Numbered from the stretch's first letter, positions 27,537-57,057 are shown. The stretch is 64,000 nucleotides of DNA from an uncultured Alphaproteobacteria bacterium (GCA_905480575.1 CAJQQZ010000054.1:31210-95209); one strand, 5' to 3'. Numbers and translations are program-made. Notes: generated by a model not told the origin, from the letters alone.

Positions 27537-27538
27537 CC

Positions 27539-28018: not shown

Positions 28019-28020
28019 AA

Positions 28021-29091: not shown

Positions 29092-29178
29092 TCCTTCAAT
29101 AACAGCATTGGCCGGAGAAATTCAATTGCTCTTGATGAGAAATCGACTAACTTTCTTTTGGAACAAAAGGATCATTCG

Positions 29179-30630: not shown

Positions 30631-30635
30631 TTGGC

Positions 30636-33439: not shown

Positions 33440-33562
33440 AGCGGTTTCCTTGCTGCCATGTGCTAATTGCAGGGCTGGTGTACGTTTTTGATGCTTCTAA
33501 ACTTTGTCCCTCGATGCCATATTCTGATCAAGACAACAACCGAACAAAAAGGACAGAATTCC

Positions 33563-33760
33563 ATGGCACAGGCAGCAACAGCAAATTTTCAAATCGATAC
33601 GTCAGCTGATAATCGCGTAGATGTTCTCGCTGCAATCGCTAACTTTTTCAGCTCTTTCAACCGCGCTTTAACAGCTGCGCAGTATGCTGAAGCCAAGTTC
33701 TACAGCAACCGCTGGAACGAGAAAGCAAGCCAGGAACTCCGCGTTCTTCTTAACAACTAA
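33563..33760 (+). CDS. Small hypothetical protein (65 aa)
   Basis: AAGGA RBS and a strong intrinsic terminator immediately downstream. No recognisable family. Confidence 0.4.
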   Translation: MAQAATANFQIDTSADNRVDVLAAIANFFSSFNRALTAAQYAEAKFYSNRWNEKASQELRVLLNN

Positions 33761-33793
33761 GAATTCAAGTTTAGTATCCTCCCTGATACTTTT

Positions 33794-33822
33794 GGCCGGT
33801 CCTTTGGATCGGCCTTTTTTTT
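33794..33822 (+). terminator. Rho-independent terminator
   Basis: GGCCG-11 nt loop-CGGCC followed by TTTTTTTT. Confidence 0.7.
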
Positions 33823-33994
33823 AGTCAGATAAAGTTTCTAGCAAAGGTTTGTGTCCACAAAGTCACAGTTGAATAGAAATGTAGTGTGTCATCATAGCGA
33901 AAGTGCGGATTAGTACTTCTTAGCAATTCAATTGTGTTATCCGGATTATTGAATGATCCAGCATTTTTAGCTGGCTCTGGGGGAAAATAACGAA

Positions 33995-35005
33995 ATGTTT
34001 GCTGTGTTTGGGAAAAAACTGATGCGTCCAGTGCTAACGGTTTTAGCGATTGGATTGCCCTTATCTGCCCCACATCAGGTAAAAGCGGACGATAACTTCA
34101 CAGTCGTGTTCAACGGCTTGGTAGACACTCATATTTACAAACTTAACTCTCACGTCAGAGTTGCCACTGGCCTGACCGTGACCCATACCGAATATGAAGA
34201 TTGGAACATCGATAATTTCAATACGAGATACGGCTTTACTGCCACAGGCGATACCGCGCTCGGCGCCTTTACAGCAAAGATTGAGGGCGAATTGTTAGGT
34301 GATCAACTTGCTATCATCCGACATGCCTTTGGACAAGTTGGTCCAATTCTCGCAGGTCAAACGGACTCACTTATGCGCGAAGGGATGCCGTTCCTTTCCG
34401 GCTCGGACGATAGTTTTTATACAATTGAATCCATTTCAGCGCCGACCACCTGGCGGCAAAGACAGCAGCTAAGATATACAACTCATTTTGGTGATGCGAC
34501 GTTGGCCGTTGCATTGGAAGACAATTTTCAAACCAATAGTGACTTTTTTGACATTACCGCCAATCTGCAGACAGAAGTTGGGTCAGCGAAGATCGCCGTT
34601 GCTGCTTTATATGACCCAACCCGTGATGACCAATTTGTGATCACTGGCTCCGCTTCTTTTAAGCTTGGCCCTGCGGATGCCTTCGTGACGGGTACTTTCT
34701 CCCAGGGGATTCTCGGACTGCAAGCGGTTGGTTGGCCTGACGCTTCGTCAATCGGCGTTGGGGTAGGCGCCCACATTCCTTTGGATGATAATCTGACTGC
34801 TTTCGTCGGTGCAGGGCGTGCGGAGAATCAAACCTATGAAAATACAATCAATTATTTTGCCGGTTCACTAACTTGGTCGCCGCTTCCTCAGCACGAGGTG
34901 GGTGGTAGAGTTCAGTACTCCGAATATTTTCATGGTAACTTCTCCGGTACGACATACGAGTATGATTATTTGCTCTTTGACACTTTCTGGCGATACAAGC
35001 TTTAG
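33995..35005 (+). CDS. Putative outer-membrane beta-barrel protein / porin
   Basis: Signal peptide, alternating amphipathic beta-strand pattern, aromatic-rich C-terminus. Confidence 0.5.
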   Translation: MFAVFGKKLMRPVLTVLAIGLPLSAPHQVKADDNFTVVFNGLVDTHIYKLNSHVRVATGLTVTHTEYEDWNIDNFNTRYGFTATGDTALGAFTAKIEGELLGDQLAIIRHAFGQVGPILAGQTDSLMREGMPFLSGSDDSFYTIESISAPTTWRQRQQLRYTTHFGDATLAVALEDNFQTNSDFFDITANLQTEVGSAKIAVAALYDPTRDDQFVITGSASFKLGPADAFVTGTFSQGILGLQAVGWPDASSIGVGVGAHIPLDDNLTAFVGAGRAENQTYENTINYFAGSLTWSPLPQHEVGGRVQYSEYFHGNFSGTTYEYDYLLFDTFWRYKL

Positions 35006-35063
35006 GCTGCGAAAGCTGATTTAGATTTCCCCACTTTCACTTTGAATTAGTCTAAGTGGGATT

Positions 35064-35690
35064 ATGACTTTATCGAGTTTATTTGCGATTTACTTAGCCT
35101 TTGCTATGGCTGCTATGTCGCCTGGCCCTAATTTGGTCATGGCTGCGACGTTGACAACGACCCAAGGTCGCTCATCTGGTTGGTCTGCCGGTGCAGGTGT
35201 CATTACAGCAAACTTCCTTTTCGCCCTCATAGCGATCTACGGGATGAGCAGTGTCGTGGCTGTTTGGCCGGGTTTCACTCATTTTGTCCGTTTGATCGGC
35301 GGCACATTCCTCCTCTGGTTTGCGTGGAAGCTTTGGAACTCGGCACGCGATGAACTCAACTGGCGAGAAGAAACAAGGGTGAGTGGTTTGCTTCAGGCCT
35401 ATGGTCTAGGTTTGATGACCAATCTTTCCAACCCCAAAGCGATGACGTTCTTCTTCTCGATATTTGCGGTACTAGTGCCAATCGACGCGACCAATTTAGA
35501 GAGAGCATCTGTGCTGCTTGGTTGCGGTGTCATCAACATCGCCTGGTACCTTCTTTTTGTCTACCTCTTTGGTGCCGGCTTTGTCCGAGCCCATTTACGG
35601 CCAGTCAAGTTTTGGCTCAATCGCTCTGCCGCTGTATTCTTGGGCGGCCTCGGCATCTGGATGATTGCAACCTTGATCAATTCCATTTAG
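35064..35690 (+). CDS. LysE/RhtB-family amino-acid exporter
   Basis: 208 aa, six TM segments, N-terminal AMSPGPN motif. Confidence 0.8.
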   Translation: MTLSSLFAIYLAFAMAAMSPGPNLVMAATLTTTQGRSSGWSAGAGVITANFLFALIAIYGMSSVVAVWPGFTHFVRLIGGTFLLWFAWKLWNSARDELNWREETRVSGLLQAYGLGLMTNLSNPKAMTFFFSIFAVLVPIDATNLERASVLLGCGVINIAWYLLFVYLFGAGFVRAHLRPVKFWLNRSAAVFLGGLGIWMIATLINSI

Positions 35691-35724
35691 CTTGCCTGAA
35701 ATTGTTTAGCTAAAGGGTTTCCCA

Positions 35725-36396
35725 ATGACGTTTTCCATTTCCGCCGTTTGCCCAGAGACAGGTCAGTTTGGTGTCGCAGTTACTTCCAGCTCGCTTTGTG
35801 TTGCCGCTCGCTGTGCCTTTGCCAGAGCGCACTACGGCGCTGTTGCCACGCAAAACATTACTGACCCAAGGCTGGCACCGCGTATCCTCGATTTGTTGTC
35901 TGAGGGCTATCAGGCTCGGGAAGCGTTGGATGCGATCATGGCTGCTCACGCGCGCCGGCAGTATCGCCAGCTTGCTGTCGTGGATCGTTATGGCAACACC
36001 GCAACACATACGGGCGCAAACACTCTTGGGACCAATGCAGTGGCGACCGGAAATGGTGTCGCGGCAGCGGGCAATTTGCTGTCTCATGTTGGCGTGCCGC
36101 AGGCCATGGTTGACGGGTTTAAGAATGCTTCTGGACAATTGGGCGACCGTTTGGTCGCAGGTATGTTGGCGGGCTTGGCATCCGGTGGCGAGATGGGCCC
36201 AGTCGCGTCGGCTGGCATGGTTATCGCTGACAAAGAGCAATGGTACATTGCTGACATTCGCGTTGATAAAGCGGACACTCCAATCGAAGACATGGCGGCC
36301 ACTTGGGAAGCCTGGAAACCTGAGATGCACGACTATGTGACCCGTGGCATAAACCCTGAGACCGCTCCTTCATATGGCGTGCCAGGTGATGAGTAA
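35725..36396 (+). CDS. DUF1028-family (Ntn-hydrolase-like) protein
   Basis: N-terminus MTFSISAVCPETGQFGVAVTSS is typical of DUF1028. Confidence 0.65.
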   Translation: MTFSISAVCPETGQFGVAVTSSSLCVAARCAFARAHYGAVATQNITDPRLAPRILDLLSEGYQAREALDAIMAAHARRQYRQLAVVDRYGNTATHTGANTLGTNAVATGNGVAAAGNLLSHVGVPQAMVDGFKNASGQLGDRLVAGMLAGLASGGEMGPVASAGMVIADKEQWYIADIRVDKADTPIEDMAATWEAWKPEMHDYVTRGINPETAPSYGVPGDE

Positions 36397-36988
36397 GCCC
36401 GTCATCGATTATTACTTCACGATCCAATCACCCTGGTCCTTCTTTGGACTCTCGCGCTTGCGTGCTGCTGCGGAAAAATCGGGCGCCACGGTAAACTACA
36501 AGGCTTGTAATCTAGGTGCCGTCTTCAGTGTGACAGGCGGCTTGCCCGTTAAGAAGCGTTCACCGCAACGTTTGGCCTATCGCATGATGGAATTGAAGCG
36601 TTGGAAGGTGAAGCTCAATCTTGACTTCAATTTTGAACCGGCGTTTTTCCCCTTTGATGATAATCCCGCCAACAAGATGATCATGGCCGCGACTGATGCT
36701 GGTTTGGATGTTGGCGATTTGGCCAATGCACTTCATCGTGGTGTCTGGTGCGATGACCTCAACATGGCGGAAGACGACAACCTCATTTCCGTGGCGACAG
36801 CCGCTGGTTATGATGGCCAAGCGCTGCTGCAAACCGTGCAAAGCGGGTCCTTGGATGCGCGCTATGAGGCTTTAACCCAGGAAGCCATCGACGCCAATGT
36901 TTTTGGGGCACCGACTTACGTGGTTGATGGTGAGAATTTTTGGGGCCAAGATCGACTTGATTTTCTGAAAGAACGCCTGTTAGGGTAA
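36392..36988 (+). CDS. 2-hydroxychromene-2-carboxylate isomerase-like (DsbA/GST-kappa fold)
   Basis: IDYYFTIQSPWSFFG N-terminus and C-terminal FGAPTYVVDGENFWGQDRLDFL. Start overlaps the DUF1028 stop. Confidence 0.75.
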   Translation, partial: SKPVIDYYFTIQSPWSFFGLSRLRAAAEKSGATVNYKACNLGAVFSVTGGLPVKKRSPQRLAYRMMELKRWKVKLNLDFNFEPAFFPFDDNPANKMIMAATDAGLDVGDLANALHRGVWCDDLNMAEDDNLISVATAAGYDGQALLQTVQSGSLDARYEALTQEAIDANVFGAPTYVVDGENFWGQDRLDFLKERLLG

Positions 36989-37021
36989 CTTCTGAATTTA
37001 GCGAACAGAAGAGTACAGAAT

Positions 37022-37855
37022 ATGCCAAAGGTCCTGAACCGAGACCAGATTGATTCTTATGAGCGCGATGGTTTCCTTTCTCCTGTTACGGTGATGTCAC
37101 CAGAAGAGGCGGGAGAGTTCCGCAAAGCGCTCGAAGAGGCAGAAGCCAAATGGCCTGAGGCATTTGAAGGGGCAGGACGCAACAACGCTCACCTCAATTT
37201 CAAATTTCTGGACGAGTTGGTGCATGATGCCCGTATCGTCGATGCTGTCGAGGATCTGCTTGGCCCGAACCTTTTGGCCTATGGGACAGTGCTCTTCATC
37301 AAAGATCCTAACACGCCGGGTTTTGTGAGCTGGCATCAAGATGCGACTTACATGGGACTTACACCACCTGCCTCTGGTGCTACGGTCTGGTTGGCTCTAT
37401 CACCGTCCAACCTAGAGACCGGTTGCATGAAGATGGTACCAGGAACCCACAAAGACGGCATCAGGTCTCACGTTGATACCTTCGCAGAAACCAACATTCT
37501 GACCCGTGGCCAAGACATCCAGGATGTTGACGAAAGCAACATTGTCGATCTGGTTTTGGAACCCGGTCAAATGTCTTTCCATTCTATGACCGTTATCCAT
37601 GGTTCTGAGCCCAACCTCAGTGACGAGCGACGGATTGGCTTCGTGATCCAGTGCTATATGAAGCCAGAGATGCAGCAGACCATTAAGCCAGTCTATGCCC
37701 AGCATGTTCGTGGCGAAGACCCTTTTGGCAACTTTCTGCCAACACCGCGTGCCTCCGGAAACATGATGCCTGAAGACGTCGCAAGACGCGATCACTGCAA
37801 CGAGATCTGGTCGGACATTCTCTATCACGGTGCCGAAAAGCGCCGAGATTTCTAG
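37022..37855 (+). CDS. Phytanoyl-CoA dioxygenase (PhyH) family Fe(II)/2-oxoglutarate oxygenase
   Basis: WHQD…H facial-triad pattern and PhyH-like length (277 aa). Confidence 0.7.
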   Translation: MPKVLNRDQIDSYERDGFLSPVTVMSPEEAGEFRKALEEAEAKWPEAFEGAGRNNAHLNFKFLDELVHDARIVDAVEDLLGPNLLAYGTVLFIKDPNTPGFVSWHQDATYMGLTPPASGATVWLALSPSNLETGCMKMVPGTHKDGIRSHVDTFAETNILTRGQDIQDVDESNIVDLVLEPGQMSFHSMTVIHGSEPNLSDERRIGFVIQCYMKPEMQQTIKPVYAQHVRGEDPFGNFLPTPRASGNMMPEDVARRDHCNEIWSDILYHGAEKRRDF

Positions 37856-37959
37856 ACGTTCAGAAAGCGTTTATTTTCAATTCATCAATCGTTCAGACTG
37901 TCTGTGCTTAATTGGGATCAACAAATGACCTGATTAAAGATACACGAAAGGACTGAACA

Positions 37960-38535
37960 ATGTTGAACCGCCGTCAAATATTTAGAGGTGCCGCCGCCGC
38001 AACAGCTGCGGTCACTTTGAGCACTCTTCCTGGCCTAGCTTTTGCCCAACACGCGATCTCGGCGGACCAGATTGAACGGTCGTTGAAAGTAGCGCCAAAG
38101 TTGCTGTTGCCTTTCAACAACCGTATCAAACGCAAAGAGCTGCGTCACCGCCAAGACTTGCGCATCGTCGCCCCGTCGATTGACATTCATGCGATCAATT
38201 TCGAGTTTGGCTCAGATCGTATTCCCCGCAATCAGCGTTGGAAAGTGCGCGAGATCGCCCGTGCTATGCGTCGGATGCTTCGCCGCGATCCTTACGAGGT
38301 GTTCCTGATCGAAGGGCATACAGATGCAGTGAGCTCTCATAGATTTAACCAACATCTGTCAGAGCGTCGTGCGGCCTCGTTGAAACGACTGTTGGTCCGT
38401 CGGTTTGGTATCAACCCCTATGCTTTGGAAACCGTTGGTTTTGGCGAAGAATACCTGCTCGTGCCGACCCCATATGAGGAATGGCGTAATCGCCGTGTAA
38501 CGCTACGCCGCGTGACTGACATCGTCACGGGCTAA
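37960..38535 (+). CDS. OmpA-family (OmpA_C-like) peptidoglycan-associated protein with TAT-like signal
   Basis: RRQIFRGAAAATAAV signal. OmpA-C motifs (IEGHTDAVSS…NQHLSERRAASLKRLLV). Confidence 0.7.
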   Translation: MLNRRQIFRGAAAATAAVTLSTLPGLAFAQHAISADQIERSLKVAPKLLLPFNNRIKRKELRHRQDLRIVAPSIDIHAINFEFGSDRIPRNQRWKVREIARAMRRMLRRDPYEVFLIEGHTDAVSSHRFNQHLSERRAASLKRLLVRRFGINPYALETVGFGEEYLLVPTPYEEWRNRRVTLRRVTDIVTG

Positions 38536-38539
38536 CCCT

Positions 38540-39166
38540 CTAATTTGAGCTCCAGTAATTGTCTAGGTAGGCTTGATATTGAACAGGGAGGTTCACTGGG
38601 CTGAAACTGCCCATCAGCCCGGAAACAACGATCACGCCTACCACCAGCCCGGCCCAAGGGAGCAGCACTTGCACCTTTGTGGCCGGTGCTGGCCATGAGC
38701 GGAACCGCAACGCACAAGCCAAGTGAGCAAAAATGGCGACAATTCCTAGAACGTAATAGGGGACGAAATACCAGACGAAAGGCGCTTTGCTGACAACACC
38801 AGCAGCCCAGTATGAGTTGGTGTCTAATGCATAGATCATCCGTGTTGCCACAGCAGCCGTCATGTGTTGCAGCAAGAAGAACGCAATATAACCACCGGAC
38901 AAAACCTGAAGCCAAGCCCAGCCGCCTTGAGGTTTCCCTCGACGAAAAATCAACATCAGCCCGATTATCATCTGGGCAAAGAAAAGTGCAAAGAGCAGAA
39001 TTTCTACTGGTAAGAAACGATAGATTATCCTGAGAGCCTCCATGACCGCCAAGTGATTGTCAATCCCTAAGACAATCGTCATATGGTTGATCAAATGCAG
39101 AACAATGAAAACTAGAAGCAACAAGGCGTTGGTTCTGTGTAGTTTTCTAAGCGTGTTATTCGCCAT
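38540..39166 (-). CDS. Integral membrane protein of unknown function
   Basis: Six hydrophobic segments. Immediately downstream of, and co-oriented with, an MFS gene. Confidence 0.45.
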   Translation of the reverse strand: MANNTLRKLHRTNALLLLVFIVLHLINHMTIVLGIDNHLAVMEALRIIYRFLPVEILLFALFFAQMIIGLMLIFRRGKPQGGWAWLQVLSGGYIAFFLLQHMTAAVATRMIYALDTNSYWAAGVVSKAPFVWYFVPYYVLGIVAIFAHLACALRFRSWPAPATKVQVLLPWAGLVVGVIVVSGLMGSFSPVNLPVQYQAYLDNYWSSN

Positions 39167-39167
39167 T

Positions 39168-40340
39168 TTAGGCTCCTGCTGGTTGACTCTTTTTGCCGAT
39201 CGCCAGCCAGATCAAGGCACCGCCAGCGAGCGCCAAGAATGGGAGCATGGCGTAGTTCACAGCAGACCAACCTTCGACGGCGTTGCCACCTGAACAGTTC
39301 ATCAAAAGGCCCGAGGACAGCGAAGCGAGCGTTACCATACCGAAAACCGCAAAATCGTTCATGCCTTGAACACGAGCACGTTCTTCGGGCGCATGGGCAG
39401 AAGCCAACATGGCCGTTCCGCCAATGAATGAGAAATTCCATCCGATCCCAAGCAAGATGAGCGCGATGAAGAAGTTCTCGAGCTCGACCCCTGCGAGCGC
39501 AACCGCCCCAGAGCAAAATAGGATTGCTAGACCGGCGGCTATGATCTTTTCAACCCCAAATCGGGCGATCAAATGCCCGGTAAAGAACGAGGGAATGAAC
39601 ATGAACAGCACATGCGCGGAGACGATATCAGCGGCATCGTTTGTGGTGAAACCACAACCAACCACCGCGAGGGGTGTGGACGTCATTGAGAGATTCATCA
39701 AAGAGTATCCGACCATAGCACAAATCATAGCCACCAAAATTCGAGGTGTTTTCAATAATTCGAACCGACTGCGCCCTTGATTTGTAGCAGTCTGTTTCTC
39801 TGGCTTCGGAATATCAAGGAAACGGAAAATCCATACGGAGCAGATGTTAATCGCCATCAGTGTGAGATAGCCACCAGCAAAAGGCACAGGTGAAAGAGCG
39901 TCCTGTGTAAATTTTACAAGCTGCGGGCCAGCGATGGCCGCAAACAAACCGCCGACCATAACGTAGGAAATGGCTTTCGGACGGAACTCAACGCTGGCCG
40001 TGTCGGTCGCCGCAAACCGATAGAAGCCATGAGCGGACATGTAGATGCCGATAAGGAAGGATCCCGCTAGGAAGATTGGAAACGAATCAACGTAGAGCCC
40101 TAGCGCACAAACGGCACCGCCTAGCGCACCACCCATTGAGCCAATGGTGAAACCCAAGGCGCGGCCATGATTCTGCATAAGATTGGCCATAAAGGGCGCA
40201 GTAACCATTGAACCGAAAACGGTCAAAGATATCGGGAGTGTTGCCCAGCACTTGTCGATGGAAAGCAGTTGGCCAGACAGTCCACCCAGCACAAAATGTA
40301 TTGGCATTTGTGCGCCCAAGATGGCTTGAGCGATGACCAA
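39168..40340 (-). CDS. MFS transporter
   Basis: 390 aa, 12 TM. Confidence 0.7.
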   Translation of the reverse strand: MVIAQAILGAQMPIHFVLGGLSGQLLSIDKCWATLPISLTVFGSMVTAPFMANLMQNHGRALGFTIGSMGGALGGAVCALGLYVDSFPIFLAGSFLIGIYMSAHGFYRFAATDTASVEFRPKAISYVMVGGLFAAIAGPQLVKFTQDALSPVPFAGGYLTLMAINICSVWIFRFLDIPKPEKQTATNQGRSRFELLKTPRILVAMICAMVGYSLMNLSMTSTPLAVVGCGFTTNDAADIVSAHVLFMFIPSFFTGHLIARFGVEKIIAAGLAILFCSGAVALAGVELENFFIALILLGIGWNFSFIGGTAMLASAHAPEERARVQGMNDFAVFGMVTLASLSSGLLMNCSGGNAVEGWSAVNYAMLPFLALAGGALIWLAIGKKSQPAGA

Positions 40341-40478
40341 GATGCCAACGTTCTTTTTGGCTCGACCGTGGTCGTATGTTTCTGATGCAGTTGAAATGGG
40401 TCTAACTTTCGTGAGGGACTTGTGGTCAATCTAGATTGGCTAACATGAAGAGCAAGAGGCGGGAAGTGCTATGCTGTC

Positions 40479-41378
40479 TCACCCCTCCGGCCGTTTGCCG
40501 ATCATTTGGCTGATGACAGGAAAATACTTGGCGCCGTGACCTGCTTCCGCCGTCCGCTCTAGGACCTTGCAAAGGTTCTCTGCGCCGCCAACAAAAAGCT
40601 CTGATTGATCCGCAAGCTGTAAGGCGTAAGCAACATCTTTGAGAGCGTACATGACGGAGAAGGCTTGTGTTGGAAAGTCCTTCGGAATGATGGCTTTCCT
40701 GGCATGATTGCGAAGCGCGAATGAATCCGCTGAAGCGGTCCCGAAAAACTCAGCCAGTTTGTCTGCTGCAACGCCGTTCTGCTCAGCGATGGCGAAGGCT
40801 TCTGACAGTGCATTTACCGTTTGAAACAGCACCATGTTGTTCATGATTTTCACAACCTGACCACAACCGGTATCACCACAGTGATTGATCTCCTCCCCCA
40901 TACACAGGAGGTAGGGTTCGATAAGTTTGAAATTCTCTCCACTCGCCCCCACCATGATGGACAGTGTGCCGTCAATGGCAGCATGCCGGGTTCTGGCTAT
41001 TGGCGCATCGATGTAGGTGACGTTAGCCTGCGAAAACTCATTAGCAATGTCTCTGGTCATCTGAACGGGGGTTGTGCCAAGGTCGACGACTATCTGACCC
41101 GGCATAGCGCCATCGATCAAGCCACGTTCCATTCGGCAAACCAGATCGACCTCCTTGCCGCTGGGTAGTGCCATAAAGATAATATCAGTTTGTGCGATCA
41201 GGTCTCGCAGTTCTCGGCAAGCCTTAACGCCGACATCCGCAAGGCTGGCCACGCGGTTTGGATCTTGGTCAAATGCGAAAACCGAGCAACCAGACTTCTT
41301 TGCAAGATTGCGGCACATCGGCATACCCATGACGCCAAGACCAATAAAACCAAGGTTTAGGGAAGTGTCGATCATTGC
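40479..41378 (-). CDS. NAD(P)-dependent 3-hydroxyisobutyrate dehydrogenase-family oxidoreductase
   Basis: Start at MIDTSLNLGFIGLGVMG. HIBADH-like length and motifs. Confidence 0.75.
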   Translation of the reverse strand, partial: AMIDTSLNLGFIGLGVMGMPMCRNLAKKSGCSVFAFDQDPNRVASLADVGVKACRELRDLIAQTDIIFMALPSGKEVDLVCRMERGLIDGAMPGQIVVDLGTTPVQMTRDIANEFSQANVTYIDAPIARTRHAAIDGTLSIMVGASGENFKLIEPYLLCMGEEINHCGDTGCGQVVKIMNNMVLFQTVNALSEAFAIAEQNGVAADKLAEFFGTASADSFALRNHARKAIIPKDFPTQAFSVMYALKDVAYALQLADQSELFVGGAENLCKVLERTAEAGHGAKYFPVISQMIGKRPEG

Positions 41379-41560
41379 TTGTTTTCCTGTTAAGCAGGGT
41401 GTTGAGAAGGGGCCAAGTCTGACCAACTTATCCTAACACCATTTTTCACTGGCGAACCAGTCCCTGCCGTCAAAGAAGTAGCGGAAGAAGACTGGTAGTT
41501 GGTCGAGCCATCAGGACAGCAAAACGGCCGAGCTTTGTTTGGAAACTTGTAGAGTCTTAA

Positions 41561-41962
41561 TCAGTGAACCTGGATGACCTTCAAATGAGTCATGCTGAAC
41601 GGGCTGTGTAATTGGGCGGTATTATTGGTGAAGATCAGCCGGTCATCCATTGAAATCGAAACCGCTACACTTACCTCTCTACCGAGTCTTGGGGCCTCTG
41701 GCATCTTTATGGAAAAGGGCATGCGAAGGCTACGGTTGATTAAGTAACTACCTGATTTCAGGCTTTGATTAGCGTCAGCCAAATTTGGATCAACGTAGTC
41801 AATGGTGATCGTAGCACCTGAGGGAACCAGGGCCTGACAGTCGCAAGAAATGGACGCCAGCCGCCCAACGGAAGGCATCGTGACATTGCCAGCCACCACA
41901 ATTTGTTGTGTGGCAACTAGCGCTGCCACTACTAAACCTGGTATGATGACTGATCTGAACAC
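41561..41962 (-). CDS. Secreted hypothetical protein (signal peptide)
   Basis: N-terminal hydrophobic signal. No recognisable family. Confidence 0.35.
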   Translation of the reverse strand: MFRSVIIPGLVVAALVATQQIVVAGNVTMPSVGRLASISCDCQALVPSGATITIDYVDPNLADANQSLKSGSYLINRSLRMPFSIKMPEAPRLGREVSVAVSISMDDRLIFTNNTAQLHSPFSMTHLKVIQVH

Positions 41963-42074
41963 GGTATTCTCCCTCGAGTCTCAAGATATTTGGAAGAATC
42001 GAAGAATCCAAGACCCCTTGTGGAGTTGTGGAACCAGTTAGACGCTAGATTTCTGTGGAAGACTTGTATAGTTT

Positions 42075-42260
42075 GCATTTTGCAAGGTGCTGGTCCCGCA
42101 AGGGGCCGGATAATTGGGAAGTTGGTACAGGTTTCACCCCTAAGCCAACGCTGCCCCCGCAACGGTAGAGAAGAGAGCTTGTCACTAAGCCACTGGGGTA
42201 ACCTGGGAAGGCGACAGGCGAGAGTTAAAAACTCACTTCTGAGCCCGGAAACCAGCCTTG
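42075..42260 (+). ncRNA. Cobalamin (B12) riboswitch
   Basis: Conserved elements in the RF00174 order: AGGTGC (42085), AATTGGGAAG, GCTGCCCCCGCAACGG, GCCACTG (42189-42195), GGGAAGGC (42205-42212), and the B12 box GAGCCCGGAAACCAGCC (42241-42257; 14 of 16 to AGYCMGGAGACCKGCC). Confidence 0.75.
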
Positions 42261-42383
42261 GAATTTGCTTTGGATGTTGCGGGCGGCGACTGAGGGCTGT
42301 CCGCACTCATTCGTGGCTGCTGACATACCTCTTCGTTTTCTCACAATTTCTTCTTTTGAATCCACGCAAGCGGGAGAATTGCG

Positions 42384-42662
42384 ATGTTGTTGACGACGTT
42401 GATTAAGGGTATGAACGAGCCAAAGGTTGCCGCTCAGTTTTTACTGACGGATGAAAAGGGTCGTACGCTCACGGCAGAAGAGGCCTTTTTTGGTTGGTTG
42501 ATGGCGTTACCCCATGAGACAACGCCACAGGTGGAAGCGCGATCAGCTTTGCAGACACTCGAAGCGCTTCCAAGCCCAAGCCAGAATCTCAAAGGGCTAA
42601 TTTTACTTTTCAAGCAGGCAAGTTTGCCGCCAGCCAGACGTCGGCGCGTTAGTCTTCACTAA
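42384..42662 (+). CDS. 92-aa hypothetical protein downstream of the cobalamin riboswitch
   Basis: GGGAG RBS 8 nt upstream of the ATG. No recognisable family. The 3' end overlaps a convergent minus-strand gene. Confidence 0.35.
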   Translation: MLLTTLIKGMNEPKVAAQFLLTDEKGRTLTAEEAFFGWLMALPHETTPQVEARSALQTLEALPSPSQNLKGLILLFKQASLPPARRRRVSLH

Positions 42663-42993
42663 AGATCGATAGATCAAGTTCTAACAGCTCGCCCATCCAA
42701 ATGGCGCGGTCGCGGTGGTCTTCCAGATGCTGTCCTGTGTCCGGGTGGGTGAAAACCGTTAGGCCCTGTCGGTTGAGTGCGAGCCAAGGAATCACTTGAT
42801 CGAACTTATCGGCGGGAACCGTCATTTGACAAGACCAGCGAGGGTGAGGCCCGACTGGCTTAGCATGCATGCGGCCCATCTTGATTTCAAACAGGTCGCG
42901 CATTTCTTCGCACAGCTTCTGGGCAAGATCATAGCTGCTATCGTCAAAGTAGATGTGAGCATGATAGCTCAGGATTTGATCAGTAGAGGTCAT
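42649..42993 (-). CDS. DOPA 4,5-dioxygenase-family (PF08883-like) small protein
   Basis: 114 aa with the YHAHIYF N-terminal motif. Confidence 0.6.
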   Translation of the reverse strand: MTSTDQILSYHAHIYFDDSSYDLAQKLCEEMRDLFEIKMGRMHAKPVGPHPRWSCQMTVPADKFDQVIPWLALNRQGLTVFTHPDTGQHLEDHRDRAIWMGELLELDLSIFSED

Positions 42994-42994
42994 T

Positions 42995-44047
42995 TTATCC
43001 TAACCATTCGATTGAACGACAATGCGGATCACCCACTGCCAGAACAAGCTCTTGCCCTTCTGGCCAGAGCCGTAGGCGTAATGTAGCCCTGTTATCATAT
43101 TCCGGGTCGATCTCATACCGTAACCAGGCCAAGGGGGCAGATGGCGCGGCGACCGCGCCAGTCTTTTCCATGTGTCGAATAATACGGTCTTGGCTAGCAC
43201 CAGGAAAATATTGGAACGCGATCGAGTGGATCAGAACAGAAACCTGGCCCTCTATTCCTAGAAGTTTCTCTTCGACCCAGTCTGCGGCGTCCATCCGATC
43301 AAGCTTTGGTGGCGTTTTCTCAGCAATGGCAATGGCCGCTGCGACCCGTTCTTGTCGCTCTGGCTGGTCTGGCCAGATGTAAGAGCGCAGTCTTTCTTGG
43401 TCCTGCTCGCTCGCGACATCCAAAGGATTTAGGTCTACACCTTGGCGGGCACTCACTTCGTATTTTTCTTGTGGTGGGCGTGACCCCTTCCAGCTGGTGG
43501 TTAGCGTGAGGTCCGACGTGCTATCTCCGTAGCTTTCACCGTCGTAAATGTAGTGAAAGCGGTCAGGGAACAGGTTGAGCCCAGCGTTGCTGCCAACCTC
43601 GAAAAGATTGAGTTGCAGCAATGTCTCTTTGGCCAAGACCATCAATCCAGCATTGAGCGCAATTGAGCGCGCCACTTCGTTGGTTTGAGGTGCCCATTGC
43701 AGCCAACGCAAGATTTCCGGCCCTTCCTTTTCCAAAACCTCAGAAACAGCTTCCCAAAGTTGGGCTCCTTTGGGCAACTGTCCAGGCGGATAGAGCGCCG
43801 CTAGCTTAGGATGGGTTCCGCGCTTAGCGAGAGCATGGAAAACGCCGGCGACGCGCAGGGTCAATACGTCATTCAGGGGATCAGAGTTCCCTGGCCATTC
43901 TAAGATGGCTTTGCCTGCTTGAGTGGATCTATTAACTCGCTCTGCGAAGGTTCGGCAGAACAAAGCTGTAAAAGGGGAGGCGAGTTTTTCGCACCATTCT
44001 GCTTGCACCGCGAAGGCGTCGCGAACTTGTTTTTCTTTTTCATCCAT
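42995..44047 (-). CDS. DUF2332-family protein
   Basis: 350 aa. Pattern and length resemble DUF2332. Confidence 0.5.
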   Translation of the reverse strand: MDEKEKQVRDAFAVQAEWCEKLASPFTALFCRTFAERVNRSTQAGKAILEWPGNSDPLNDVLTLRVAGVFHALAKRGTHPKLAALYPPGQLPKGAQLWEAVSEVLEKEGPEILRWLQWAPQTNEVARSIALNAGLMVLAKETLLQLNLFEVGSNAGLNLFPDRFHYIYDGESYGDSTSDLTLTTSWKGSRPPQEKYEVSARQGVDLNPLDVASEQDQERLRSYIWPDQPERQERVAAAIAIAEKTPPKLDRMDAADWVEEKLLGIEGQVSVLIHSIAFQYFPGASQDRIIRHMEKTGAVAAPSAPLAWLRYEIDPEYDNRATLRLRLWPEGQELVLAVGDPHCRSIEWLG

Positions 44048-44100
44048 GGAAACAAAGGTAAGCTATGCTGACCTTTCGTCAAGGCCCATCGTATAAAAAT

Positions 44101-44853
44101 TTAGAAGGAGACGTCTCGATAGAAAGCATTCATGAAGTAGAGCCCGTCTGATGGCGCGGTCATTCCTGCTATGGTTCGGTCCTTGGCTTCGAGAATGTCC
44201 TTCAGGTCCTCAGGTGTGAATTTGCCCTCTCCAACTTCCTTGAGACTGCCGGCAAAATTCCGGATCTGGTGGTACAAGAATGAACGGGCCGCAGCCTCAA
44301 TGATGATTTCCTGGCCTTCGCGATAAACATCGAGACGATCCAGAGTTTTGATCGGTGATTTTGCCTGGCAGTTGGCCGCTCTGAATGATGTGAAATCATG
44401 GCTGCCAACTAAATACGATGCCGCTTTTCTCATGGCGGGAACAGAGAGGGAGCGATGGACATTCCACGCCAGACCTTTGTCGAAAGTGAGAGGGGCCCGT
44501 CGATTAACTATTCTGTATTGATAGGCCCGGCCGATGCAGGAGAAACGCGCATGAAAATCACCAGTGACTTCCTGGACACCGACAATGGCGATAGGGTGAG
44601 GTCGCAGCAGAGCGTTAATAGCCTTAAACAAGCTGTGTGGGTCAGTTGATTTTGCAATATCAACGTGGGCATGCATGCCTTTTGCATGAACACCAGCATC
44701 GGTTCGCCCCGAAGACATGACCACAACTTTTTCCTGGCAGAACGAATGGATGGCCTCCTCGATCGCTTGTTGGACAGAGGGGCCATTTTCTTGACGTTGC
44801 CAGCCACAGAAGGGCCGACCGTCATATTCTATTTTGAGCAGGTAGCGGGTCAT
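44101..44853 (-). CDS. truA: tRNA pseudouridine(38-40) synthase
   Basis: YLLKIEYDG…GWQRQ…[11 protein letters not shown] catalytic-Asp motif. Confidence 0.9.
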
Positions 44854-45761
44854 CAGTTCCCCAATTCTGTGCCCTTTGGCACGGGATTGCCTCTTAGGAA
44901 ATCAATTGCCGTCATGGCACCTTTACCCTGTAACTGGATGCGTTCAAGTTTCAGGGCTTTTTGACCACAAGCCACAACCAGATCGTCGGTCAGGATTTCT
45001 CCCGGTTTGCCTGTTCCTTCAACAATTGATGCTTGTAGGATTTTGAGAATTTTGCCGTCCAACTTTGTGCTGGTTCCAGGCCACGGGAAGAAGGCGCGGA
45101 TTTTTCTTTCCAGAACATCGGCTGGTTGAGAAAAGTCCAGTTGGCCTTCTGACTTTTCCAGTTTGTGAGCGTAGGTAATTCCTTCCGCATCTTGAGGTTC
45201 AGAACGCCACTCACCAGTCTTAATTGACTTAACGAGAAGATCGGCACCCAATGTTGACAAAAGGTCGTGCAAAGACTGTCCTGTTGTCTCATCTGTTAGG
45301 TCGGTTTCGCATCGGGCGATGACGGCCCCGGTATCTAGGCCTTTGTCCATCTGCATGATACATACGCCGGACTTGTCATCGCCTGCTTCCATAGCGCGTT
45401 GGATCGGTGCAGCGCCTCGCCATCTTGGCAACAGTGATGCGTGGACATTGATACAACCAAGCCTCGGCGCGTCAAGAATAGCTTGTGGGAGGATCAGACC
45501 ATAAGCGACAACAACAGCCAGATCGGCGTCCAATACAGCAAAAGCTTGTTGCTCTTCTTCTGATTTGAGCGACAAAGGGTGACGTGTCAGCCAGCCTTTG
45601 CTTTCTGCAAAAGCCTGAACGGGGCTCAGCTGTACTTTGTGACCTCTGCCCGATTTTCTAGGCGGTTGAGAATAGACCGCTACAATCTCGTGACCGGCTT
45701 TGGCCAAGGCCTCTAGGCAGGGCACGGAAAAGTCCGGTGTTCCCATGAAGATGATGCGCAT
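44853..45761 (-). CDS. fmt: Methionyl-tRNA formyltransferase
   Basis: [15 protein letters not shown]-terminus, 302 aa. Confidence 0.9.
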
Positions 45762-45772
45762 GGCCGGAGATC

Positions 45773-46306
45773 CTATTCCAAATCAGCAGCACGTGCTTTT
45801 TTGATCTTAAGTGATTTCTTAAGCATCATATTGCGTTTGAGAGCCGAGATGTGATCCGTAAACAGGATACCGTTCAAGTGGTCGATTTCATGCTGTATGC
45901 AGGTCGCCAGAATGCCGTCAGCATGGACAGATTGCTCCACACCGTCGCGGTCCAAAAAAGTAACTTTCACTTCGGCAGGTCTTTCAACGTCCGCGTATTG
46001 GTCTGGTATGGAAAGGCAGCCCTCTTGATAAACGTTGAGCTCTTCGCTCGACCAAGTGATCTTTGGGTTGGCCATCACGATGGGCTCTTTTGGCGCGTCT
46101 TCATCTTCCTTTTGAGCCACGTCCATCACAAGGATGCGTCTTAAATCACCGACCTGATTAGCGGCGAGCCCGATGCCTTGCGCTTCATACATTGTATCCA
46201 GCATATCATCCATGAAACTGCGAACGGCGTCATCGACAACATCGATGGCTTGCGCTTTTTTCTTGAGGACAGGATCGGGTGCTATGACGAGGGGAAGAAC
46301 GGCCAT
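45773..46306 (-). CDS. def: Peptide deformylase
   Basis: GIGLAANQVG, EGCLSIP and HEIDHLNG motifs. Confidence 0.9.
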   Translation of the reverse strand: MAVLPLVIAPDPVLKKKAQAIDVVDDAVRSFMDDMLDTMYEAQGIGLAANQVGDLRRILVMDVAQKEDEDAPKEPIVMANPKITWSSEELNVYQEGCLSIPDQYADVERPAEVKVTFLDRDGVEQSVHADGILATCIQHEIDHLNGILFTDHISALKRNMMLKKSLKIKKARAADLE

Positions 46307-46473
46307 TTGTACTTACTTTTTAAACACTAACAGGGTTTTGGCTACACCTAGGTGGTGACGGCAATTGGGTCAAGGCCCAAGGCGATTTAGCGAAAAAGAT
46401 TGAATTTCCACACATGGATCTCAATATAAGCTAAAGATAAATTCTAAACATCATAAACTCGGGGGAACTGAGC

Positions 46474-47427
46474 GTGCTTGAAGGCTTTTCGATTTTTGTC
46501 GTCGTATTATTCGTATTTGTCATTTTCATCGTATTTGCAGGCGTCAAGTCGGTGGCTCAGGGCCGAGAATATACGGTCGAGCGGTTTGGTCGCTACCGGG
46601 TTTCTTTGAAGCCGGGTTTGAACCTTATCATCCCTTTTGTTGATCGCATTGGCCGAAAGGTCAACATGATGGAGCAAGTGCTGGATATTCCAACTCAGGA
46701 AGTCATCACACGCGATAACGCCATGGTTTCTGTTGATGGCGTGGTTTTCTATCAAATCCATGATGCCGCTAAAGCTTCTTACGAAGTCAATAACTTAGAA
46801 CTAGCAATCATCAATTTGACGATGACTAACATTCGTACTGTCATGGGGTCGATGGAGCTCGATGAGTTGCTCAGCCAACGCGACAAGATTAACGCCGCCT
46901 TGCTCCATGTCGTGGACGAGGCCACTAATCCTTGGGGTGTTAAAGTAACCAGGATCGAGATCAAAGACATTGCACCGCCAAGAGATCTGGTCGATTCAAT
47001 GGCACGTCAGATGAAGGCGGAACGTGAAAAGCGTGCCCAGATCTTGGAAGCTGAAGGTTTCCGCGCTGCGGCTATTCTTAAAGCTGAGGGTGACAAACAA
47101 GCAGTGGTCCTCGACGCGGAAGGTAACAAAGAAGCAGCATTCCGCGAAGCAGAAGCCCGTGAAAGAGCTGGTGAAGCTGAAGCCAATGCAACGGCCATGG
47201 TGTCTGAGGCCATATCGAACGGCGGTGTTAATGCAGTTAATTACTTTATCGCCCAAAAATACGTCGAAGCACTCAAGACGATGGGAACCTCTGATAACAG
47301 TAAGGTTATCTTTATGCCCATGGAATCTTCTGGGGTTATCGGTTCAATCGGCGGGATCACCGAACTTGTGAAGAACGCTATGCATGAACAGAGTGACAAC
47401 AGCGGCCCTTGGAACAGTAAAAAATGA
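46474..47427 (+). CDS. SPFH/band-7 (stomatin/paraslipin-like) membrane protein
   Basis: N-terminal TM segment, SPFH domain, Glu/Ala-rich coiled coil. Confidence 0.85.
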
Positions 47428-47438
47428 GGCTAGAGCCG

Positions 47439-47900
47439 ATGAACGACTTTCTTTCGGTTTTGAATGACCCTAATCATTGGCACTGGTTTGTCCTGGCTAT
47501 CATCTTGATTACGATTGAAGTGGTGGCACCTGGTTCCTTTTTCTTATGGATGGGTGTCGGTGCAGCCGTCACGGGCCTGGTGGTTTTGTTGTCGCCAGAA
47601 TTGGGCTTCACTTGGCAATTGTTGATCTTCTGTGTTGCAGCTTTAGTTGGGCTGATCGCGGGTCGTCATTTTTTTCGAAAAACAGCGGAAAACGAAGGAA
47701 GCTTTGGTCTTAACGAGCGCGGTGCTCAAATGGTTGGAAAGACCTTCATTGTGGCTGAAGCCTTCGTCGGCGGTCGCGGGAAAATCAAGGTTGGTGATTC
47801 ACTCTGGATTGCTTCAGGACCAGACGCTGAACAAGGTGATAGTGTTAAAGTCTTAGCGGTTAATGGTGTCATGGCCGAAGTTGAGAAAGTAGACCCTTAG
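47439..47900 (+). CDS. NfeD-family membrane protein (SPFH partner)
   Basis: Two TM helices plus a C-terminal OB-fold-like region. Overlaps or abuts the SPFH gene. Confidence 0.75.
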   Translation: MNDFLSVLNDPNHWHWFVLAIILITIEVVAPGSFFLWMGVGAAVTGLVVLLSPELGFTWQLLIFCVAALVGLIAGRHFFRKTAENEGSFGLNERGAQMVGKTFIVAEAFVGGRGKIKVGDSLWIASGPDAEQGDSVKVLAVNGVMAEVEKVDP

Positions 47901-47918
47901 GATCTTTTGGCGAAGCAA

Positions 47919-48854
47919 TCAGGCCTTTCTTTTAGGGAAGTTGATGGCGATCACCCCAAGAATAGCCAGAGAAACGCCAACAGCGACCATGGGCGTCAAC
48001 GTTTCGCCGAGGATAATCACGCCAAGCAACACCGATACACCTGCTCTCAAAAAGGCCTGGCTAGCGGTTCCAAGCGAGCCCAGGGTTTTGATCAAGCGAA
48101 AATAGATCAAGAATGCAAAGACGGTGCTGAACAAAGTCATCGCAGCTGCCGCTAGCAGAGATTCAGTACTGGGTGTCAGTGCCCAAGGTTGTTCCAATAG
48201 CAAAGCAGCCGGAACTAAAAACACCGTTCCCCAAAGAACCGTGCAAGTGGCGGTTACGACCGGGGCCAATCCGGAGAACCGTCGTCCGTTCAGAGCCGCA
48301 AAGGCATAGAGAATGGCGCCGGCTAGAGCCGCTAGCTGCGCTAACACCTGTTGACCTAAACCAGCCAAGACATCAACCCCTACAATGAGGACCACACCCA
48401 CAAGTCCAAGTGTGGCACCGATCAGCTTGAGCCAGCTGATATTTTCTAAGCGCCCCAAACAAAGTGAAATGAAGAAGACAAACAGTGGTGAAGTAGAATT
48501 CAAAACGCCGGCCAAACCGGAATCAATGTATTGTTGGCCCCATGCCAATAGCGTCCAAGCGCCAATCGCGTTGAGGAAAGATTGGACCAGCAGATGTCCC
48601 CAAGTCCTCACTTCGCGGGGGAGCTTTTCTTTCTGCCAGAACAGGACAAGGAGCAGTAGGACCGAGGCTCCTGTTACCCGAATGGCGATGAGGCTGAAGG
48701 GTGGAATGGTTTCTACCGCGATCTTCATGAAGAAGTAAGACGAACCCCAAAGCACCGCCAGGACGGCCAGCAAGAACAGTTCAAATCCAAAGTTAGTCTT
48801 CGGGTCGGCCATATGTGCTATTCCATCTGCAATCAAGAGCAAGCGGCTTAGCAC
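47919..48854 (-). CDS. EamA/DMT-family transporter
   Basis: Ten TM segments, two EamA repeats. The true start is probably the internal MADPK. Confidence 0.75.
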   Translation of the reverse strand: MLSRLLLIADGIAHMADPKTNFGFELFLLAVLAVLWGSSYFFMKIAVETIPPFSLIAIRVTGASVLLLLVLFWQKEKLPREVRTWGHLLVQSFLNAIGAWTLLAWGQQYIDSGLAGVLNSTSPLFVFFISLCLGRLENISWLKLIGATLGLVGVVLIVGVDVLAGLGQQVLAQLAALAGAILYAFAALNGRRFSGLAPVVTATCTVLWGTVFLVPAALLLEQPWALTPSTESLLAAAAMTLFSTVFAFLIYFRLIKTLGSLGTASQAFLRAGVSVLLGVIILGETLTPMVAVGVSLAILGVIAINFPKRKA

Positions 48855-48948
48855 AAAAGATCAAGAAAGTGCTTCGATAAAGGTCGAACTAAGGATTGAC
48901 GATGAGAGCTTTATGCATGCGATTGATTTTGGCAGGTAATCGAGGTGC

Positions 48949-49419
48949 TTAGAAAGCACCCATCTCCAGGCTCGCTGCCATCAACAGCCCCAATTGTTCG
49001 GCTTCCTCCAGCCAGTTGTCGTTCCATTTGCCTTTGAACAGCAGCGGTTCTTGCACCATTTTCCATCGAAGGCCGGTTGTGATGGTCTCTATGCCTTTGC
49101 GTGTACCGGTGCCGTCCAGTCCGGCACGAATGTAGACTGCCATCGGCAAACCCTGTTTTTCTTCCAAGACAGGGTAGTAACAACGATCAAAAAAATCCTT
49201 GAGCGCGCCCGACATATAGCCAAGATTTTCAGTGGTGCCCAAGATGATGGCATCTGCAGCGAGCACGTGCGCCGCTTGGGTTTCGAAAGGGTTGAGAGTT
49301 GTAACGGTGACACTATCCACATCAGGAGAGCTGGCACCACGCTGTACAGCATCTCTAAGGGCTTGTGTGTTGGGTGAAGGTATATGGCCAACAATGAGAA
49401 GTTGCTTATCGGGCATCAA
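48949..49419 (-). CDS. Flavodoxin-like fold NAD(P)H-dependent FMN reductase family protein
   Basis: 156 aa. LLIVGHIPSPNT N-terminus typical of NADPH-dependent FMN reductases. Confidence 0.55.
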   Translation of the reverse strand: MMPDKQLLIVGHIPSPNTQALRDAVQRGASSPDVDSVTVTTLNPFETQAAHVLAADAIILGTTENLGYMSGALKDFFDRCYYPVLEEKQGLPMAVYIRAGLDGTGTRKGIETITTGLRWKMVQEPLLFKGKWNDNWLEEAEQLGLLMAASLEMGAF

Positions 49420-49754
49420 ACCTGGGCCTTGGCTGAATCAATGACAGAAGGGATAGCCGTCTCGAATATTTCAATGAGTTCGGGGTCCATAAAGCTATAA
49501 TCGTCAGGAATGTCGAGAATGTAAATCTTTGCTTTGTTAACAAGACTGCCGAACTGTTGCAAAATTTGTTGGCGATGCTTTGGTTCCATGACGATGATGA
49601 GATCAGCCCAGGTCAAATCGGCCTCATTGATTTTTCGCCTCGCGCTGGCCGCAGTTCCGGCGGACCGGGCATTGAAGCCAGGCTTTCGACGCCAAAGGTT
49701 CTCCGCCGTTGGGCTGCGCCACTTGTTACGACTGCAAATGAAGAGCAAATTCAT
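49416..49754 (-). CDS. Low-molecular-weight phosphotyrosine phosphatase-like protein
   Basis: CX5R P-loop: LFICSRNKWRS. Confidence 0.6.
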   Translation of the reverse strand: MNLLFICSRNKWRSPTAENLWRRKPGFNARSAGTAASARRKINEADLTWADLIIVMEPKHRQQILQQFGSLVNKAKIYILDIPDDYSFMDPELIEIFETAIPSVIDSAKAQV

Positions 49755-49774
49755 GGGGAATCATCAATCCTCGG

Positions 49775-50233
49775 TCAGCCCCATTTGCCGGTGGTTCGAA
49801 ATTGGCTTTGAAAAATTGTTTCAACTTGGCGAATAAAGTTCTCTTTTTGATTTCTATCCACACCCTCGATTGTCTCTACTTTGACCAGCAAGTCCAAGGT
49901 GGATTGCGCTTGCTCAGAGGAAAAAGAATCAATGCTCCGATTGAGAATTTTATCGAGATTGTTCTTAACGTCGTCCCCACGGCCATAAAGATAACTACAG
50001 GACAGCAGCAGTTCTGTTGCTGCTTTGAGCGACAGAGAAAACTCTGATTGAAAGAGCATGATCAATTGCTGCTTTTCTTCCTTGCTCACCTCTCCGTCGA
50101 TCTTGGCAACAGCAAAGGCGAGCAGTGCGGCGGCCTCCATCGGGTCTTCGATCGAATAGATAGGATCTCCGCCAAGCTCGCCTTCGCTGCCAAGAGAAGG
50201 GATTAAGCCAACCAATGTCGACCCCACTGTCAT
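49775..50233 (-). CDS. TerB-like (tellurite-resistance TerB / DjlA-N fold) protein
   Basis: AKIDGEVSKEEKQQL pattern. Probable internal start at MEAAALL. Confidence 0.5.
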   Translation of the reverse strand: MTVGSTLVGLIPSLGSEGELGGDPIYSIEDPMEAAALLAFAVAKIDGEVSKEEKQQLIMLFQSEFSLSLKAATELLLSCSYLYGRGDDVKNNLDKILNRSIDSFSSEQAQSTLDLLVKVETIEGVDRNQKENFIRQVETIFQSQFRTTGKWG

Positions 50234-50459
50234 CCAATCGTTTGAGAAGGATCAGTATAGTGACGATGGTCCCAAGGATTCCCAAAATTATGTGCATCGT
50301 TCGTGGCTCAGCTGTAAGGTTGAATTCGCTAGAAAAAATCTATCGGGGATGTTCTAGCATTCCAGCCCTAGTTTGTCTCGCGGTGCCTGTTAGAAGAAGT
50401 GGTTGCGCAATTCACGCCTTTCTGTAGAGAGAAAGTCAGAAACATAGGAGTGCAAAGAA

Positions 50460-51974: not shown

Positions 51975-51986
51975 CGTTCAGTTTGA

Positions 51987-52250
51987 TCAGATGCGCCGTT
52001 CGCTCTTTGGGCGGCGCAAGTACAGGAAGATTCCATAAAGAGAGATCAAAGCCCAAAAGAACTCAATCAAGAAGCCTGACCAATTCCATTCGAAATACAA
52101 AGAAATAATGATCAGGATCGACCCCAAGCCATTCACGATTGAAAAGCGCAGTTGAGCGCTGCTCCAACGTTCAATTTGGATCATCAGGTAAGCGAAAACG
52201 ATGCAAAAGACGCCAAAAGTGCCAACGATGTCATGCCATGCAACGTCCAT
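51987..52250 (-). CDS. Small membrane protein (87 aa) immediately downstream of the Kef-type antiporter gene
   Basis: Three hydrophobic helices. Confidence 0.4.
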   Translation of the reverse strand: MDVAWHDIVGTFGVFCIVFAYLMIQIERWSSAQLRFSIVNGLGSILIIISLYFEWNWSGFLIEFFWALISLYGIFLYLRRPKSERRI

Positions 52251-54092: not shown

Positions 54093-54239
54093 CGGGACTC
54101 CTTGAAATTAGATGATTTGAGACCAAGCTTAGACAGTCATCAATAATAATCAACAACTATGGCATTGATGAGGGCTCGGACTGTGCTAAATTCAGACCTG
54201 TAAAATTTTTAGACCGCTATTCAGAAAAGAACCGGCCCA

Positions 54240-55955: not shown

Positions 55956-55957
55956 CG

Positions 55958-56419: not shown

Positions 56420-56455
56420 CCAGTCTCTGGTCATAACCTGGGTATTCGTTCTAAC

Positions 56456-56944: not shown

Positions 56945-57057
56945 GAGCTTTCTCCTATTGGTGTGGTCGGATATGTTTCAATAGAGCTATCTTCTCACAC
57001 CACCTAAAACTTGCTAGTGATATAGATCACGTTTTCTGCATTTTCTGGAGGTTCGGC

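Follow-up and report, generated by a model that had tools for sequence, protein, structure and literature searches.

Organization of the Locus

The window analyzed here, a 64-kb stretch of DNA (positions 1..64000), carries a cobalamin riboswitch aptamer on its plus strand, the 3' end of which lies 109 nt from the ATG of a small open reading frame (ORF). This ORF runs toward a series of minus-strand genes, and another minus-strand gene diverges from the riboswitch on its opposite side. The features that make up the locus, together with a dehalogenase gene located elsewhere in the window, are as follows:

7191..10376, plus strand: reductive dehalogenase fusion, 1061 aa
41561..41962, minus strand: gene for a 133-aa secreted-looking protein, divergent from the riboswitch; YscW-like (PF09619, E 0.014, sub-threshold)
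42044..42058, plus strand: conserved block GCTAGATTTCTGTGG, just 5' of the aptamer
42068..42274, plus strand: cobalamin riboswitch aptamer (RF00174)
42150..42165, plus strand: aptamer core GCTGCCCCCGCAACGG, invariant
42189..42195, plus strand: GCCACTG, hallmark element of RF00174
42241..42257, plus strand: B12-box region GAGCCCGGAAACCAGCC, hallmark element of RF00174
42384..42662, plus strand: gene for a 92-aa orphan protein, under selection, with homologues in four further lineages
42649..42993, minus strand: convergent DOPA_dioxygen-family gene (PF08883, E 9.4e-35)
next gene after 42649..42993, minus strand: DUF2332 gene (PF10094, E 3.4e-96)
beyond the DUF2332 gene: truA, fmt, and def, all over the NCBIfam cut-offs

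The initial annotation had described a plus-strand ORF with a GGGAG ribosome-binding site, an end overlapping a DOPA-dioxygenase-like gene, and minus-strand DUF2332 and truA-fmt-def genes beyond, and this description was borne out. The ORF encodes 92 aa, a GGGAG Shine–Dalgarno (SD) sequence at 42372..42376 is positioned 7 nt 5' of its ATG, its final 14 nt are shared with the 3' end of the convergent gene, and the minus-strand genes belong to the families given above. Two readings had been offered for this arrangement: either a novel B12-regulated small protein is encoded here, or the riboswitch drives antisense transcription into the convergent genes.

The divergent gene at 41561..41962 encodes a product with a hydrophobic N-terminus, which is 70% identical to the corresponding neighbor in contig L014 and 34% identical to that in L009; a 132-aa gene is called at this position in L014 and L016-L018.

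Genomic Context and Use of Vitamin B12

A cobalamin-dependent dehalogenase had also been noted in this genome. Indeed, the product of 7191..10376 matches TIGR02486 with 209 bits against a cut-off of 160. Its dehalogenase domain, with a 4Fe-4S dicluster, occupies residues ~426-640 and is followed by C-terminal flavin-reductase-like and 2Fe-2S ferredoxin domains, while the N-terminal ~420 residues gave no family match. The fusion is a 'self-sufficient', B12-dependent dehalogenase, presumably of the non-respiratory type. Because such a B12-dependent RdhA is encoded in the window, the organism can be concluded to use B12. The ~40 window ORFs scanned included no gene for B12 uptake or biosynthesis, the dehalogenase gene being the only B12-related one.

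Elsewhere in the window, 54240..55955 (plus strand) encodes a member of the aldehyde:ferredoxin oxidoreductase family (AFOR_N, E 1e-52; AFOR_C, E 2e-59). These tungsten/molybdopterin enzymes are mostly known from anaerobes and would be unexpected in a marine alphaproteobacterial setting. A 336-aa ORF at 33995..35005 (plus strand) has no Pfam family at E 1e-5, and a 208-aa ORF at 38540..39166 (minus strand), which is multi-pass-membrane-like and lies directly downstream of an MFS transporter gene, has none at E 0.1.

A Canonical Cobalamin Riboswitch

The cobalamin riboswitch, RF00174, was the sole Rfam family to reach its gathering threshold across the window, and this cmscan search of the 64 kb found no tRNA, rRNA, or further cis-regulatory RNA. 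The match scores 100.8 bits (E 4.9e-24), well over the gathering score of 31.5, and covers model positions 1-189 of 189, i.e., it is full length and not truncated. As stated in the initial annotation, the hallmark elements all occur in canonical order on the plus strand, with the CCCCCGCAAC core followed by GCCACUG and then by the B12 box. Judged by its sequence, 42068..42274 is a canonical AdoCbl-type cobalamin riboswitch that is conventional as a riboswitch and would be expected to bind this ligand.

The window matches the full-length model of the RF00174 AdoCbl type with a P6 extension, of which the Escherichia coli btuB leader is an example, and, as in the RF00174 class at large, the aptamer belongs to the 5' leader of a gene on its own strand. 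The cargo differs: in place of the transporter, cobalamin biosynthesis gene, or B12-independent isozyme usually found behind RF00174 aptamers, the window has a gene for an orphan 92-aa protein. This gene fits none of the categories that make up the B12 regulon as known, namely uptake, biosynthesis, transport of cobalt, and B12-independent isozymes; belonging to that regulon is a usual, not a defining, feature of RF00174 cargo.

Within the conserved block just 5' of the aptamer, the hexamer CTAGAT (42045..42050) is invariant when the upstream sequences of the window, L007, and L009 are aligned, and may represent a -10-like promoter element, for which it is a candidate. A sigma-70 consensus scan recognized no canonical promoter at 42044..42058.

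Coding Status of the 92-aa ORF

Homologues of the 92-aa protein were recovered at identities of 69% (P0002), 62% (P0124), 47-49% (P0125), and 45% (P0003); P0001, which stems from the same organism, is identical to it. Searching 5.8 billion proteins with a profile yielded five clusters for the whole family, the window's own included, and hmmsearch, run exhaustively against 1.84 billion cluster representatives, returned a single match. Scans of genome contigs and of metagenome contigs each returned one locus.

The same start codon and an intact reading frame are found in all five lineages (45-69% identity). Between the window and L002, differences at the three codon positions number 20/16/49, corresponding to 35 synonymous and 27 non-synonymous codon changes, and a third-position excess is seen in 10/10 pairs of the five lineages, with dN at 0.19-0.57 and dS saturated. 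The 21-nt context of the start codon and SD sequence, GCAAGCGGGAGAATTGCGATG, does not vary among the window, L002, and L009. Minus-strand ORFs overlapping the 92-aa ORF vary in length, as illustrated by 59 aa in the window versus 118 aa in L005. Because dN is well below dS, third-position changes are in excess, the start/SD context is invariant, and the minus-strand ORFs are not conserved, the ORF can be taken, on this comparative evidence, as a protein-coding gene under purifying selection.

Small hypothetical genes neighboring riboswitches are frequently annotation errors (PMC9943018), and the product of this one has no recognizable family or fold, as would also be the case if the ORF were spurious and the riboswitch were an orphan, a relic, or the source of a trans-acting noncoding RNA of the EutX/Rli55 type. 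Retention of the frame from the same start in five lineages argues against such a scenario, as do the low dN relative to dS, the conserved SD sequence 7 nt from the ATG, the differing lengths of the overlapping minus-strand ORFs, and an AlphaFold2 (AF2) model that is confident from just five sequences; we therefore regard a spurious ORF as very unlikely.

Pairing of the Aptamer with the ORF

An RF00174 aptamer is located ~110 nt 5' of the ORF in 5/5 lineages carrying the ORF. The orthologous aptamers score 105.9 bits in L002, 96.8 in L007, 107.7 in L009, and 82.7 in L006, where the contig end cuts the aptamer on its 5' side. L009 was found via its neighboring DUF2332 gene, independently of the sequence of the 92-aa ORF, and thus provides independent confirmation of the coupling between aptamer and ORF. 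DUF2332 homologues at ~52% identity lie in another neighborhood, with neither riboswitch nor ORF. The relatives' contigs originate from environmental metagenomes (SOLA is the label of several), and one comes from a metagenome-assembled genome labelled 'uncultured Alphaproteobacteria bacterium'. Of the two readings offered initially, that of a novel B12-regulated small protein is therefore supported by purifying selection on the ORF and by the presence of the aptamer in all five lineages, B12 regulation itself being inferred.

The second reading concerns the convergent genes. In the window, the terminator scan found no terminator between the 92-aa ORF and 42649..42993; plus-strand read-through antisense to the latter gene is thus physically possible in this genome. 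If the riboswitch acted in this way, the main role of its transcript would be to enter the DOPA_dioxygen/DUF2332/truA-fmt-def operon, which would be modulated through either antisense pairing or transcriptional interference, and the ORF would be incidental. The 14-nt overlap without an intervening terminator is consistent with such a role, and the same overlap is present in the L005/L007/L013 lineage. Moreover, in a survey of riboswitches, 190 cobalamin riboswitches were putatively antisense-acting versus 10,769 in the sense orientation; these cases are a small minority of all cobalamin riboswitches, and the class is enriched among putatively antisense-acting riboswitches (PMC9943018).

The geometry on which antisense action would depend is not maintained, however. 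Spacings between the ORF and the convergent gene in the five lineages are -14, -14, +55, +137, and ~+290 nt, and apart from the window only the L005/L007/L013 lineage has kept the overlap. A 137-nt gap containing two long inverted repeats separates the small ORF from DOPA_dioxygen in L009, a 55-nt gap leads straight onto DUF2332 in L006, which has no DOPA_dioxygen gene, and an insert of ~240 nt lies between the small ORF and the convergent DOPA_dioxygen gene in the L002/L004/L008 lineage. Purifying selection on the ORF in all lineages indicates that it is not incidental, and the convergent families PF08883 and PF10094 have no known link to B12; a literature search found no paper mentioning DUF2332. 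The single plus-strand terminator-like site beyond the ORF, at 43142..43160 in the antisense region, was considered as a transcript end and rejected, as this hairpin is not conserved in L005 and probably arose by chance.

A useful comparison is AspocR/pocR of Listeria monocytogenes, where, as in the window, the riboswitch transcript points to the 3' end of a convergent operon. Unlike in that system, a conserved coding gene under selection separates the riboswitch of the window from the convergent gene, the antisense arrangement is not conserved among relatives, and the partner differs in L006. Across the lineages compared, it is the small gene that invariably accompanies the riboswitch, whereas the antisense geometry is lineage-specific. 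Antisense transcription thus finds no support as a conserved function, and we judge it an improbable explanation for the locus.

In two of the lineages, the sequences between the small ORF and the convergent gene are as follows:

2242..2377 of L009, minus strand as read: inverted repeats in the gap, GCCTTTCGGG...CCCGAAAGGC and AGGCGTTTTTC...GAAAAACGCCT
304..557 of L004 and 3204..3244 of L008: ~240-nt insert; a 24-nt sequence containing both stop codons recurs in inverted orientation at its flanks

The L009 repeats may be bidirectional terminators and are absent in the window, where the genes overlap. The L002/L004/L008 insert holds a further 21-nt inverted repeat (GTTAGCTCTTATCAGACTTTTC ... 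GAAAAGTCTGAGAAAGCTAAC) and has the appearance of a small element that was inserted or of a terminator region that was duplicated.

The Expression Platform

The region between the aptamer and the start codon contains the following elements:

42267..42276, plus strand: candidate partner GCTTTGGATG of an L5 pseudoknot, directly 3' of P1; weak
42276..42290, plus strand: block A, GTTGCGGGCGGCGAC, a conserved 15-nt anti-aptamer sequence
42278..42305, plus strand: hairpin 1, TGCGGGCGGC / loop GACTGAGG / GCTGTCCGCA, the aptamer-independent pairing of block A
42344..42381, plus strand: SD-occluding hairpin (block B), in which the anti-SD CAATTTCTTC (42344..42353) pairs with GGGAGAATTG (42372..42381)

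Terminator scans of the window, L007, and L006 found no intrinsic terminator between aptamer and ATG. Hairpin 1 is part of the consensus that RNAalifold derives from four lineages, with a duplex of -17 to -20 kcal/mol; because no U-tract follows it, it does not qualify as an intrinsic terminator. In lacking a terminator and placing the SD sequence inside a hairpin, the window resembles typical proteobacterial cobalamin switches that act on translation.

A conserved candidate for a switching element is found 3' of the aptamer. The first 14 nt of block A (GTTGCGGGCGGCGA) are identical in four lineages despite saturated synonymous sites, and block A is complementary to the aptamer core or, alternatively, to 42296..42305. 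The duplex of core and block A is predicted at -23.3 kcal/mol in the window, and block A is the best partner of the core anywhere in the platform in 5/5 lineages. Compared with shuffled sequences, this pairing gives p 0.002-0.011 for four of the lineages and p 0.05 for L006, whose duplex is predicted at -17.7 kcal/mol. Enforcing the helix costs 0-4.6 kcal/mol over the minimum free energy (MFE) structure, and in L007 it is the MFE structure. In these models, block A carries the signature of a switching sequence. The comparison set comprises five lineages, three of which are fairly close, and covariation statistics are consequently weak.

In the btuB leader, an L5-L13 kissing interaction couples the aptamer to the ribosome-binding site. 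No convincing counterpart was identified in the window, which instead has the conserved sequence complementary to the aptamer core. RNAduplex places a partner of the 3' side of L5 (42139..42149) at the homologous site behind P1 in four lineages, and relative to shuffles this pairing is significant in L007 only (p 0.005), with the others at 0.05-0.64. The L5 to post-P1 pseudoknot was accordingly retained as a weak candidate on the strength of one lineage.

The SD hairpin is predicted in 5/5 lineages, with the L006 version being built from other sequence (CUGGGUC/GAUCCGG). Its stability is not significantly above that of shuffled sequence (z -0.5 to -2.1), and the probability that the SD sequence is unpaired shows no consistent difference between apo-like and holo-like states in thermodynamic models. 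This held for three kinds of constrained folding, in which block A was blocked, the pseudoknot partner was blocked, or the helix between core and block A was enforced, and a three-element model of SD control was set aside. The spacer at 42300..42360 is pyrimidine-rich and G-poor, a composition that would be compatible with Rho loading.

Proposed Regulation and Its Direction

Taken together, the locus is probably a cis-acting, AdoCbl-repressed switch, in which a canonical AdoCbl-type riboswitch forms the 5' leader of a monocistronic mRNA for a real 92-aa protein. In the absence of B12, block A would invade the aptamer core. Binding of AdoCbl would lock the core, block A would form hairpin 1, and the small protein would cease to be expressed. 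This shut-off would concern translation initiation; Rho-dependent termination or decay within the pyrimidine-rich spacer may follow. The small protein would thus be produced under B12 shortage.

The great majority of known RF00174 members are OFF switches, and nearly all characterized proteobacterial representatives act by ligand-induced shut-off. It is from this behavior that we infer the direction of the switch. The 92-aa gene is most likely a new member of the B12 regulon, repressed in cis by AdoCbl.

Several of the predicted structures would also suit the opposite logic, in which the riboswitch is activated by B12, hairpin 1 prevents formation of a longer terminator-like or inhibitory hairpin, and abundant B12 leads to production of the protein. 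With block A paired to another partner, the downstream strand of the window forms a long imperfect hairpin (~42285..42337) followed by a U-rich stretch, and in L007 the strand that becomes free in the apo-like state pairs as GGCCGC/GCGGCU, with CUUCCUUUUUCC behind it; in addition, modelling gives no B12-dependent rise in SD occlusion. None of these hairpins is called by the terminator scan, however, and neither their sequence nor their shape is conserved across lineages. The SD hairpin is predicted in both states, and an ON switch would depart from the prevailing behavior of the class. We consider B12 activation unlikely and favor repression by AdoCbl.

A Small Protein Family Without Recognizable Relatives

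The initial annotation had found no recognizable B12-related function in the 92-aa ORF, a statement that stands after the searches described here. Neither the 92-aa protein nor any other family member matches an entry in Pfam, NCBIfam, or PHROGs, and a PDB profile search with the protein returned no match (best E 1.8). An earlier AF2 model from three sequences was unusable (pLDDT 54.7), rendering Foldseek on that model meaningless. With five sequences, AF2 produced a model with pLDDT 83.7 and pTM 0.71, for which Foldseek found no match in PDB (best E 2.1, TM at most 0.37) or BFVD (best E 0.8). Across these searches (Pfam, NCBIfam, PHROGs, PDB, and Foldseek against PDB and BFVD), no link of the protein to B12 metabolism was detected, and a literature search found no paper describing the gene. 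The product represents a previously undescribed family that is confined to a single clade of Alphaproteobacteria, all uncultured and apparently marine.

In the AF2 model, residues 1-80 form a soluble helical core, and the C-terminal tail, the Arg-rich RRRRVSLH, has low model confidence. An Arg/Lys-rich tail is conserved in the family, with His as the last residue in 4/5 sequences. The core has a pI of 4.9-6.2 in 4/5 lineages and of 9.2 in P0002. Transmembrane segments are absent from the family, for which the maximum Kyte-Doolittle 19-residue window is 0.6-1.2. No conserved Cys or His was found among the family members, and neither metal-ligand residues nor a B12-binding motif was recognized in the 92-aa protein.

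CbtB provides a point of reference as a small protein of the B12 regulon, where it is the cobalt-transporter partner of CbtA. It is likewise a short protein encoded right behind a cobalamin riboswitch in Alphaproteobacteria. Unlike CbtB, the 92-aa protein matches nothing in Pfam or NCBIfam and has no hydrophobic segment and no His/Cys metal ligands, and its gene is without a same-strand partner. The lack of membrane segments, metal ligands, and a B12-binding motif, together with the conserved Arg-rich tail, leads us to speculate that the protein has a binding, adaptor, or regulatory role and is not a transporter or an enzyme. More tentatively, and as a possibility that we would not yet call probable, the 92-103-aa family may be the founding example of small binding, adaptor, or regulatory proteins that are induced by B12 starvation and that, through the helical core and Arg tail, rewire metabolism or B12 acquisition. 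If so, the output of this riboswitch would be a regulator instead of a transporter or enzyme.

Implications for Vitamin B12 Biology

Genes behind riboswitches have been a repeated source of new functions tied to the sensed metabolite. The riboswitch described here is of an already-known type; what is new is its clade-restricted, orphan small-protein cargo. The family is tiny, with its five sequence clusters, and its hosts are uncultured. The cargo is a conserved protein without a family or recognizable fold, and the uncultured marine bacteria that encode it possess a B12-dependent dehalogenase as well. In seawater, B12 is a traded and often limiting vitamin. A protein that would be made only under B12 scarcity may thus offer a concrete handle on how bacteria cope with limiting B12 in the sea.
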